Position numbers and translations under genes: made by a program. A model generated the notes under the pieces. The model saw only the letters and a program-made list of their open reading frames with translations, did not search any database and was not told the origin of the DNA. Shown piece after piece: positions 2,111 to 3,333 of a stretch of 5,554 nt of DNA; positions within the stretch are counted from its first letter, which is position 1; every line of letters begins with the position of its first letter. This stretch comes from a virus. Its lineage: Duplodnaviria > Heunggongvirae > Uroviricota > Caudoviricetes. Where the stretch lies: positions 1 to 5,554 of IMG/VR virus record IMGVR_UViG_3300029033_000047. One strand, 5' to 3'.

Positions 2111-2437
2111 TCATAACACCGTCGGACAACGCAAATCGTAAATCAGCACGGACACAGAAAACGGCAGTTCCCCCTGCACGAGGTCTTCCCGCTCAGCAAG
2201 ATCCGGATTCCGGTACAACATCCCGGTCAGGCGCATGGCAGCCCCCTTCATCCGGGTTAATGCCTCGCCCGGGATCAGTTCACCGTCCTCACGGATTACC
2301 TTATCCCGGCTGCCCTGAATGTAGGCCAGCAGCACAGCTGTAGCCTGACGAACCTTGTCCATCAGCATCTCATCATCCGCGTCATGGTCAACACGCAGAT
2401 GAGCCTTGATTTCTTCCAGTGTCAGTAATGCTGTCAC
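2111..2437 (-). CDS. gp6-like head-tail connector protein
   Basis: 108-aa ORF starting with GTG in a GTGA overlap with the upstream gene stop, with an AGGAGGTG RBS 4 nt upstream. The N-terminus MTALLTLEEIKAHLRVDHDADDEML matches the characteristic ...LTLEE.K.HLR.D.DDED... start of the gp6-like connector family. Confidence 0.8.
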   Translation of the reverse strand: MTALLTLEEIKAHLRVDHDADDEMLMDKVRQATAVLLAYIQGSRDKVIREDGELIPGEALTRMKGAAMRLTGMLYRNPDLAEREDLVQGELPFSVSVLIYDLRCPTVL

Positions 2438-3333
2438 TTTCCACCTCCTGCATCCCGCCCACGTTTTGCAGCCAGGGTCCAGGCTGATGAATGAGCTTCT
2501 CCGGGTTTATCTTCGGTCATACTGTTGCAGTGCCACAGCGAGCCCCCCCACGTCACCGTATCGCCGGGGTGGTAGGTTTCACCGGCTCTGAACACACCGC
2601 GGTAGAGCATCACCGGAAGGGAAAATGTTTTTTCCGTACGCTGGCCACTGCTCTGCCGGACCACCACAGAGAACAACCGTTCACCCGTCATGCTGACGTC
2701 AATATCCGCCACCCCGTCAACCAGGCATTCCCATCCCCGCATCCCGTGCGTTTTTTCATACGCCCGCCAGAGTCCGCCCTGGTGTGTGGCATACGTGCCC
2801 CGGGGAAAGGATTTTTGATCGTCAATGGCAGGGAGTATTTCCAGTGCCGTGGCATCACGCCCGTCCTGCGGAGCCGGCAGGGCATTCACCGCCTCCAGAA
2901 CCGCCTTCCGCAGTACTTCCGGATCGTAATCACGACCATCACGCGGAGCAGGGATATGACTTACGGCCTCTTTCACCATCTGCTCAAGCATCGGACGCAC
3001 ATCATCCGGGGTAATACTTTTGCCGTCCGCCGGTACAGGAATATTTGCGACCGCATCATTCACCGCCTGCTGCAGTACATCCGGATCATAATCACGACCA
3101 TCACGCGGTACCGGAATGGCCCCCACAGCCTCATCCACCATCGCCTGCAGAACCGGACGCACCTCATCCACCGTCACATGCTTCTGTAATACCGCCGACA
3201 GGGAAATCAGTTTCTCTTCAAACGCTTGTGCCTGCGAGGCCATCTTCCCCTCAAATGTGCGCTGTAAATCCGCCAGCACTGTGGAGAATTCTTCACCCAG
3301 CGCACGGATAATGGACAGTTCACGTTCATTCAT
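2434..3333 (-). CDS. Repeat-containing phage structural-module protein of unknown function (299 aa)
   Basis: ATG start in an ATGA overlap with the portal stop. Three parts: an N-terminal ~50 aa helical/coiled-coil-like segment; two 54-aa tandem repeats (aa ~53-160), each made of two ~27-aa half-repeats ending in IP-x-P-x-DG-(R/K)-D; and a C-terminal ~130-aa Trp/Gly-rich domain with two copies of a G-x-[YT]-x-T-x-x-GG-[LS]-LW motif (GTYATHQGGLWRA and GDTVTWGGSLWHC). It is not recognisable as a prohead protease or a major capsid protein. Confidence 0.8.
   Translation of the reverse strand: MNERELSIIRALGEEFSTVLADLQRTFEGKMASQAQAFEEKLISLSAVLQKHVTVDEVRPVLQAMVDEAVGAIPVPRDGRDYDPDVLQQAVNDAVANIPVPADGKSITPDDVRPMLEQMVKEAVSHIPAPRDGRDYDPEVLRKAVLEAVNALPAPQDGRDATALEILPAIDDQKSFPRGTYATHQGGLWRAYEKTHGMRGWECLVDGVADIDVSMTGERLFSVVVRQSSGQRTEKTFSLPVMLYRGVFRAGETYHPGDTVTWGGSLWHCNSMTEDKPGEAHSSAWTLAAKRGRDAGGGK
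2855..3180 (-). repeat. In-frame tandem coding repeat (2 x ~162 bp) inside the 299-aa gene
   Basis: A 36-bp core at 2911..2946 and 3073..3108 is identical except for 2 synonymous-type mismatches; both copies encode PRDGRDYDP(D/E)VL. Flanking sequence is more diverged but still related (e.g. ccggacgcac(a/c)tcatcc at ~2991 and ~3153). Confidence 0.75.

Follow-up and report, generated by a model that had tools for sequence, protein, structure and literature searches.

A stalk-and-knob protein encoded between the portal and adaptor genes of a tailed-phage head module, in split and portal-fused alleles

Is the protein encoded between the portal and the head-tail adaptor of a phage head module the product of a gene in its own right, or is it the displaced end of a longer portal, and where in the particle would it act? 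The question is raised by a stretch of 5,554 nucleotides (nt) from a virus of the class Caudoviricetes (positions 1 to 5,554 of IMG/VR record IMGVR_UViG_3300029033_000047, the whole of which is called the window), where a protein of 299 amino acids (aa), referred to here as X, is encoded directly after an HK97-family portal. The comparisons presented below show X to belong to the universal core of this widespread HK97-like head module, and X is very probably a separate, conserved, portal-coupled gene rather than a pseudogene.

Relatives were collected with a knob-centred profile (A2, 211 positions). Among representative proteins, which stand for clusters at 50% identity, it matches 8136 at E<=1e-3, of which 926 remain at the stricter E<=1e-30. 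Almost all of the top 150 matches are 200-620 aa long and carry the knob at their extreme C-terminus. Gene order was then compared in a set of 68 loci, one genome per species, using home-made hidden Markov models; the taxa covered are Enterobacterales, Pseudomonas, Burkholderiales, Rhizobiales, Sphingomonadales, Acidobacteria and others. The order capsid fusion, portal, X and adaptor is near-invariant among these loci, and with the small open reading frame (ORF) included, the module reads S78-protease/capsid fusion, small ORF, portal, X and gp6-like adaptor in every lineage examined. The same module order is presented by a Pseudomonas D3-like phage and a Rhizobium phage, and X comes next after the portal homologue in a partial siphovirus record from enhanced biological phosphorus removal. 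A tblastn search with the Salmonella homolog returned no well-studied phage with an X gene.

Portal and X are split in 61 of the 63 loci with upstream DNA and fused in two (Proteobacteria, Acidobacteria). Where the start of X can be placed in a split locus, it overlaps the portal stop in 48 of 56 cases, and the other eight have a gap of 1-10 nt. The overlaps are of the types ATGA (25), 8-nt (7), TGATG (7), 14-nt (6) and others (3), and X keeps an ATG of its own, overlapping the portal stop, in Gamma-, Beta- and Alphaproteobacteria and in Acidobacteria alike. Both frame offsets of X relative to the portal occur (overlaps of 4, 8, 14, 1, 16 and other nt, and some small gaps). Judged from these sequences, translational coupling to the portal is a conserved trait of the family, and a programmed frameshift is not; frameshifting as a family feature, in the manner of lambda G/GT, was ruled out because the frame offsets differ between lineages.

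In the window itself, X is coupled on both sides, by ATGA with the portal stop and by GTGA with the adaptor start (Table 1), as a first-pass annotation of the window's letters had noticed. The same annotation placed X in the slot normally held by protease, scaffold or capsid, a statement that had to be given up: the gene for the protease-capsid fusion precedes the portal instead. In relatives of the window, the S78 prohead protease and the HK97-type capsid protein form one gene of 644-645 aa in that position, and the capsid fusion gene of a Klebsiella locus matches Pfam S78 plus Phage_capsid. A separate scaffold gene is absent from the head module in the loci examined.

Long-tailed Stx1a, Stx2a and Stx2c phages and other E. 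coli lambdoid prophages share 94-96% identity with the window. In comparison with Klebsiella, E. coli presents an identity of 67% in the knob, 67% in the portal, 80% in the capsid and 54% in the adaptor, whereas there is no match for the head-closure (Hc1) and major tail proteins, and a weak one only for the gp10-like and tail-terminator proteins. The knob diverges in step with the portal and the capsid, and not with the tail genes, which are exchanged between these lineages.

Split and portal-fused alleles

A single difference separates the window from the fused allele, namely a run of G residues 12 nt before the portal stop, which is G5 in the window and G6 in the fused allele. The fused E. 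coli ORF has 859-861 aa, reads ...AMFRGDTEKMTERELS at the junction, and is carried by phage 2851 (as an annotated 859-aa portal) and by many E. coli genomes. In a junction census, complete E. coli genomes were probed with sequences of 44 and 45 nt that have the G-run in their middle. G6 is present at 1369 places (782 genomes) and G5 at 917 places (490 genomes), counts that are not phylogenetically independent; about 60% of E. coli copies are fused. Among database proteins, the fused form is present at 861 aa on at least 1000 contigs and at 859 aa on 806 contigs, and the identical 299-aa X protein is present on one contig only in the protein collection, a contig of 5554 bp that corresponds to the whole window.

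The direction of the change is indicated by Klebsiella, where a locus with the same gene order has a portal ending in ...AKAMLRGLLAK*, an ATGA overlap, and a stand-alone X of 402 aa that starts with MNERELS. The portal terminus of the window, ...VKAMFRGILRK*, is homologous to this ending, and the G-run is absent in Klebsiella. Because the C-terminal peptide of the portal is conserved with Klebsiella, the split frame is ancestral, and the 859-861-aa "long portal" of E. coli is a derived fusion from G5 to G6.

The G5 and G6 haplotypes were further compared over 570 nt of flank in 58 loci. G6 is limited to closely related flank haplotypes, and G5 is found on many diverse ones. The window haplotype differs from the nearest G6 at 40 of 570 positions (7%). 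Two G5 loci have 570-nt flanks identical to those of G6 haplotypes, which suggests occasional recent switching between the two states.

One carrier of G6, phage phi330, forms plaques and reaches more than 1e9 PFU/ml (plaque-forming units; PMC12502783). Its genome record (L090, PV189401) contains several apparent frameshifts in head and tail genes between 3875 and 8872: the portal is truncated, X is broken into two frames, and breaks are likewise seen in the gp10-like and major tail genes. Long-read homopolymer errors are the probable cause, and the G6 call in this phage needs confirmation.

The last codons of the window portal (3330-3352, minus strand) read AGG GGG AUA CUG CGA AAA UGA, three of which are rare in E. 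coli. Phages of the window type carry tRNA-Ile(CAU), tRNA-Arg(UCG) and tRNA-Arg(UCU) genes beside stx (46784-47027 in the phi330 record).

Independent fusions in distant lineages were also found outside E. coli, in the protein P0277, in an Acidobacteria locus (L136) and in a Sphingosinicella locus (L156). In comparison with the fused E. coli protein, the P0277 portal presents 36% identity overall. In the Acidobacteria locus, which is a metagenome bin, portal and X share one open frame (...TPTPTQMMDPAK...). A related locus from another such bin, L135, has an ATGA overlap at the portal stop (MMDAT...), and its knob is encoded some 1.5 kb further downstream, in an open stretch of its own. This pair could represent a polymorphism like that of E. 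coli or an assembly error, the link between the L135 start and the knob not being established.

Anatomy of X

X is encoded on the minus strand; translated on the plus strand, 2434..3333 is full of stops. A 232-aa antisense ORF (2491..3189, plus strand) lies wholly within the conserved minus-strand gene. The anatomy described in the first-pass annotation, i.e., a helical N-terminus, two repeats of 54 aa and a Trp/Gly-rich C-terminus resembling carbohydrate-binding modules (CBMs) of family 5/12, is borne out by AlphaFold2 (AF2) models and by repeat statistics. The coordinates of the parts are presented in Table 1.

At the N-terminus, AF2 predicts a helix from residue 3 to 50 with a predicted local distance difference test score (pLDDT) of 66-82, and the heptad signal is weak. 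The first 16 residues, MNERELSIIRALGEEF, are conserved in Enterobacterales (alignment A1), and an amphipathic helix is also found at the N-terminus of X in distant lineages.

The stalk that follows is composed of units of one helix and one proline-rich IPxPxDGxx linker. The motif [IL]PxPxDG[RK][DS] occurs at residues 73, 98, 127 and 152, i.e., at a spacing of 25, 29 and 25. Hence, of the four units of about 27 aa reported earlier, the number and the grouping into two repeats of 54 aa stand, and the uniform length does not, since the units alternate between 29 and 25 aa. The two repeats are identical at 32 of 54 residues, and 100,000 shuffles reach 13 at most. At the DNA level, the two 162-bp units are 67% identical, which is why Tandem Repeats Finder reported no repeat anywhere in the window; phage 2851 has near-identical 162-bp tandem copies (3.3 copies, 95% matches). 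The stalk is acidic, with an isoelectric point (pI) of 4.3. AF2 models it as four short helices separated by proline-rich linkers of 12 residues.

Stalk length varies in E. coli, where X has 245, 299, 353, 405-407, 461 or 569 aa, in steps of 54 aa and on G5 and G6 backgrounds alike. These changes are driven by the near-identical 162-bp repeats. Other lineages have other stalks, such as about 25 units of the PEPEPLPD type in P0277, and long collagen G-X-Y stalks in the homologs P0195, P0196, P0198, L136 and L156; the window X contains no G-X-Y repeats. The 162-bp repeats split short-read assemblies: many family proteins are recorded as partial, and many viral contigs begin or end inside the repeat, among them the IMG/VR contigs L022, L035, L037 and L043-L049.

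The C-terminal part of X is a conserved beta knob of about 135 aa, with a CBM5/12 fold at its end. From about residue 165 onwards, AF2 predicts a beta domain with confidence (pLDDT 83-94), and a knob modelled alone reaches a pLDDT of 85. The knob of the window is 100% identical to that of many other copies. The small three-stranded beta fold of CBM5/12 (PF02839) is present in it, yet window X does not reach the Pfam gathering threshold of this family (22.0 versus 26.2 bits), and homologs score 18-26.0 bits, the best being from Klebsiella (26.0). The resemblance to CBM5/12 pointed out in the first-pass annotation is therefore real at the level of fold, and Pfam sequence membership is not reached. 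At the position of what we take to be the Trp-Trp pair of chitinase CBM5/12 modules, inspection by eye gives Ser-Met in window X and Glu-Gln in Klebsiella.

Beyond the knob, residues 290-299 of X include KRGRDG(K/R)D, which echoes the DGRD that closes each stalk unit. Some homologs (P0193, P0195, P0198, L136) have collagen-like GKDGKDG... repeats after the knob, so that the knob is not always the distal end.

Searches against known families gave little else. The 299-aa X has no match to the portal domain (PF04860, TIGR01537), which is found whole in the neighbouring 454-aa ORF, and an NCBIfam and Protein Data Bank sequence search returned no family and no solved homolog. The first-pass annotation had held that a profile match to a prohead protease or a standard scaffold would make X a conventional protein; X matches no S78, S14 or S49 peptidase and no known scaffold family in Pfam, PHROGs or NCBIfam. 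A fusion of X to a gp6-like adaptor, as the NCBI names of the 402-aa Klebsiella proteins imply, was ruled out, these being stand-alone X proteins with more repeats.

Table 1. Position of X, its parts, its junctions and the neighbouring genes in the window.
Feature	Coordinates	Strand	Basis or remark
X (stalk-and-knob protein), 299 aa + stop	3333..2434	minus	phrog_1289 E 1e-157; phrog_2271 E 2e-202
N-terminal amphipathic helix, aa 1-52	3178..3333	minus	AF2, alignment; proposed coiled-coil/docking segment
Stalk repeat 1, aa 53-106	3016..3177	minus	29-aa + 25-aa unit; AF2 helices 55-71, 84-96
Stalk repeat 2, aa 107-160	2854..3015	minus	32/54 residues identical to repeat 1
Beta-rich C-terminal knob, aa 161-299	2437..2853	minus	invariant Trp, Gly, two Cys in alignments
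CBM5/12-fold module inside knob, ~aa 241-290	2464..2613	minus	
ATGA overlap, portal stop / X start	3330..3333	minus	sequence
GTGA overlap, X stop / GTG start of gp6-like adaptor	2434..2437	minus	sequence
G5 run (C5 on plus strand)	3345..3349	minus	G6 here joins portal and X into one ORF
Portal C-terminal tail, aa 400-454	3333..3497	minus	low-complexity linker + terminal amphipathic helix (...ISETERDAVKAMFRGILRK); proposed X docking site
HK97-family portal, 454 aa	4694..3330	minus	PF04860 E 3e-80 (270 bits); TIGR01537 349 bits
gp6-like head-tail adaptor (Ad1), invariant gene 3' of X	2437..2111	minus	PF05135; phrog_40; synteny
73-aa ORF	4861..4640	minus	phrog_829 match (function not assigned there)
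Protease/major-capsid fusion, C-terminal 213 codons	5547..4906	minus	ORF runs off window; phrog_617 positions 433-626 of 626, "major head protein"

Possible position of X and rival explanations

A portal-associated role is favoured because X has an invariant position after the portal, a start that overlaps the portal stop, and a record of recurrent fusion to the portal C-terminus. This supports one of the roles proposed in the first-pass annotation, that of a portal-associated minor head protein; for the two others, scaffold and surface decoration, the comparisons speak neither in favour nor against. A Pro/Ala/Ser-rich linker and a short amphipathic helix close all 22 module portals examined, distant lineages included. 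The N-terminal helix of X would dock on this flexible linker-plus-helix tail, and X would then be bound to the portal tail non-covalently when split and covalently when fused. On balance, and by a small measure, we consider it probable that X is physically tethered to the C-terminal tail of the portal.

The crown is the innermost part of portals, and the C-terminal coiled coil of P22 lies inside the head (PMC4493910). It is because the portal C-terminal crown is the most internal part that X is placed on the inner portal face: with the portal C-termini forming the crown, X would hang from that face inside the head or prohead, and an interior X would account for both the tolerance and the recurrence of portal fusion. 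A location inside the head or prohead, on the crown side of the portal and at least in the procapsid, is a plausible but tentative placement. More speculatively, the knob may grip a conserved partner in the head interior, either the protease or scaffold part of the capsid fusion protein or DNA. In this way it could link the portal with the assembly of the shell, or organise or sense the packaged genome like the P22 barrel or SPP1 gp7; alternatively, X may be released. Taken by itself, an assembly or DNA-organising role appears rather unlikely. X is probably an elongated, trimeric molecule, and the best overall explanation that we can put forward, with reservation, is a portal-partner stalk-and-knob protein hung from the inner face of the portal.

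A bolder form of this explanation would make X a new head-interior class, i.e., a lectin-fold knob on an acidic, length-variable and sometimes collagenous stalk hanging from the crown of the portal dodecamer in a very large group of HK97-like temperate phages, with G5 and G6 toggling, in E. coli, between free X and X covalently bound to the portal. This is doubtful, albeit conceivable. If true, free X is possibly released or ejected, and the knob may grip the inner capsid or protease layer, or bind a peptidoglycan glycan strand after ejection.

Among known systems, X may by analogy work most like a detachable C-terminal extension of the portal, such as the P22 barrel, or like a post-portal minor head protein, such as SPP1 gp7, and be built like a fibre. 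The P22 gp1 portal barrel is a long helical C-terminal extension that runs from the crown into the capsid (PMC4493910), and the fused E. coli allele has that topology. X differs in being ancestrally a separate gene, in having a helix-plus-proline-linker or collagen stalk in place of a continuous 12-helix barrel, and in ending in a beta knob; there is no sequence similarity between the two.

Like X, the minor head proteins of the SPP1 gp7/Mu gpF (MuF) type are encoded directly after the portal and are fused to it in some genomes, and their portal-bound place in the head interior is the one proposed for X. Their architecture is wholly different from that of X, which has a stalk and a CBM-fold knob and is acidic rather than DNA-binding in character, and X has no match to PF04233 (Phage_Mu_F) at E<=0.01 in Pfam and PHROGs. 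The chitin-binding CBM5/12 modules (Serratia ChiB; the Streptomyces ChiC chitin-binding domain, 2d49; 2rts) share the motif Y-x-x-GD-x-V-x-W-x-G-x-x-W with X, whose module sits inside a larger knob of 135 aa attached to no enzyme; sugar binding by X is putative.

T4 fibritin, the phi29 head fibre gp8.5 and collagen tail fibres (9rkv, 8kec, 9b45) have in common with X a putative N-terminal coiled coil, a variable modular stalk and a distal globular domain; collagen G-X-Y stalks are found in X homologs, and X has weak fold matches to tail fibres. In contrast, X has no sequence homology to them, its gene is locked to the portal and not to tail or neck fibre modules, and it fuses to the interior end of the portal. 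A last likeness is to All3316, a small protein in the cryo-electron microscopy model of the Anabaena contractile injection system baseplate (7b5h_AE), with an E-value of only 0.015-0.067; in All3316, the knob motif is N-terminal to a helix, and the protein belongs to a tail-like machine, not to a head module.

Several points weigh against an interior, portal-bound X. The docking of its N-terminal helix on the portal tail comes from layout only, and X, with its putative coiled coil, a stalk that varies or is collagen-like and a CBM-fold knob at the C-terminus, is laid out as external phage fibres are. The fold matches of X that come from phages are only to tail fibres, tailspikes and baseplate decoration. 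A stalk of pI 4.3 is awkward beside packaged DNA, its AF2 model is of low confidence (pLDDT 45-63), and the head interior has no glycan ligand. The fused E. coli allele could be a loss of function tolerated in prophages, the phi330 record is visibly error-prone, and the fusions outside E. coli, which come from metagenome bins or metagenomic proteins, could be assembly or gene-calling errors.

A first alternative explanation is that X is external, a trimeric whisker or head fibre with its N-terminus at the neck, portal vertex or capsid and a glycan-binding knob of the CBM5/12 type that would help virions to stick to cell envelopes, mucus or debris. The putative coiled-coil N-terminus, the variable stalk and the collagen G-X-Y stalks of homologs suit a trimeric fibre, the fast change in stalk copy number (245-569 aa) is typical of surface proteins, and an acidic stalk suits an exposed position. 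Presumably, the location of X beside neck genes is also comparable to that of T4 wac beside genes 13/14.

An external X has to be reconciled with frequent, recurrent fusion to the portal C-terminus, which is the end in the head interior: the fused allele would have to be a tolerated or complemented loss of an accessory function, or the portal tail would have to reach outside, which is not known for any portal. X is, moreover, a universal core member of the module and not a sporadic accessory, its knob is conserved along with portal and capsid, unlike diversifying receptor-binding tips, and its Pfam CBM_5_12 score is under the family cut-off. The exposed Trp-Trp pair that we assume to be the consensus of chitin-binding CBM5/12 modules is not conserved in X. 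Altogether, we regard an external fibre as a serious rival, albeit a somewhat unlikely one.

X could also be a transient assembly factor, present on the portal in the procapsid only, where a scaffold-like arm would recruit the protease-capsid fusion around the portal and then be cut by the S78 protease, so that mature virions would lack it. X is acidic and helical, as scaffolding proteins are, and its head module is without a separate scaffold gene; if fused and free forms were both cleaved, they would be equivalent, and the G5/G6 polymorphism would be tolerated. Stalk length is also free of constraint. A conserved beta knob with invariant Trp and Cys and the collagen stalks are, however, unlike known scaffolds, and X matches no protease or scaffold family, which leaves this explanation unlikely.

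According to a third alternative, the G-run serves for programmed frameshifting or phase variation, by which one phage would make both free and fused X in a set ratio or would switch from one state to the other. G5 and G6 are both common, the identical 570-nt flanks of two G5 loci and G6 haplotypes are what a switch would produce, and the rare codons AGG, AUA and CGA lie around the run in phages that carry the matching tRNA genes. Neither slippery site nor frame is conserved, however: enterics have X in the -1 frame, the Pseudomonas phage has it in the other one, and in the Rhizobium phage X and the portal do not overlap; Klebsiella is without the run. Runs of five or six G are short for efficient slippage, and G6 occurs only on related haplotypes, as for a rare mutation that spread. 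Such a switch is very unlikely.

Finally, that the true gene is a long portal of 750-860 aa and the window a frameshifted, decaying copy (the view of RefSeq and its annotation pipeline PGAP, and of the Sakai survey) agrees with the PGAP call at a locus of identical junction, with the far greater number of fused proteins in protein databases and with the scoring of the portal as defective in Sp6, Sp9 and Sp12 (Asadulghani et al., PMC2669165), but it is highly improbable, since the split frame is shared with Klebsiella to the last residues of the portal and, in other taxa, with 61 of 63 loci, no G6 allele comes closer than 7% to the window haplotype, the ORF of X is intact, starts with an ATG of its own and encodes a knob that recurs at 100% identity in many copies, and the split allele, present at 917 places in complete genomes, is under-counted in protein databases because PGAP makes split loci pseudogenes.

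Annotation, significance and neighbouring genes

The X family is catalogued under wrong names, as phrog_1289 and phrog_2271 "portal protein" and, at NCBI, as "phage portal protein" or "gp6-like head-tail connector protein". The "portal" name is taken from fused alleles: on the 859 positions of the phrog_2271 "portal" profile, the window portal fills 1-451, and the best stretch of X is 683-859. A RefSeq locus whose junction is identical to that of the window (E. coli CP55_Sichuan) is annotated as a single pseudogene, "phage portal protein, frameshifted", and at least two RefSeq loci with the split allele are annotated as frameshifted. Because the split frame is ancestral, as judged above, both the "frameshifted pseudogene" label and the "portal protein" name are artefacts. 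Stand-alone X proteins from Klebsiella and Enterobacter (P0034, P0076 and many others) are named gp6-like connector without having a gp6 domain, and a member of the fused-portal cluster (P0246) is named "plasmid partitioning protein ParA". The entry PF28083 appears in precomputed annotations of homologs; Pfam scans returned no family of this accession.

In the literature, no functional, proteomic or structural study of the X protein was found, and searches on Pankowvirus, on Detrevirus and on portal with CBM or collagen gave nothing relevant. The phi330 paper (PMC12502783) reports virion mass spectrometry, whose data are deposited as PRIDE PXD061229, with peptide maps for short-tailed phages only and a supplement without portal data. 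In the Sakai prophage survey, the portals of Sp6, Sp9 and Sp12, which have this head module, were scored as defective (PMC2669165); this scoring would need revisiting if it was based on the split allele.

About one in four complete E. coli genomes has the X gene, often several times over in different prophages, among which are the long-tailed Stx1a, Stx2a and Stx2c phages of enterohaemorrhagic E. coli. Recognising X as a conserved portal partner corrects systematic annotation errors. What is new here is that X is a separate, universal gene of the module, that the split state is ancestral, that the E. coli fusion is derived through the G-run and has led to misannotation, and that stalk length is polymorphic. 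The structural question is what task a CBM-fold knob on a collagen or coiled-coil stalk would have at the interior end of the portal or, if X is external, how a portal-fused copy works; the natural split and fused alleles offer a genetic comparison with little engineering. In the typing of Stx phages, the 162-bp repeats and the G-run lead to contig breaks and pseudogene calls.

All genes of the window lie on the minus strand. Downstream of the adaptor, they encode a head-closure protein (Hc1), an HK97 gp10-like protein, a tail terminator and a major tail protein with an Ig domain. The major tail protein (184-900, minus strand) has this Ig-like domain at its C-terminus (Pfam Ig_2, I-set; PHROG "Hoc-like"), which makes it a second candidate surface-adhesion module of the same virion. 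The 73-aa ORF, placed after the capsid fusion gene, runs 55 nt into the start of the portal gene. It is annotated as WP_001063099.1 in relatives and has a 55-aa counterpart in Klebsiella; small as it is, this ORF is a conserved part of the head module.

During the junction census, the probe was found at record coordinate ~5089-5092 in 9 of 60 sampled genomes. The E. coli chromosome NZ_CP053731 (L007), where terL occupies 1-1662, and at least eight other complete chromosomes have records that start exactly at the first base of terL, the terminase large-subunit gene, of this prophage type; it looks as if an assembly re-orientation tool took this terL as the origin.

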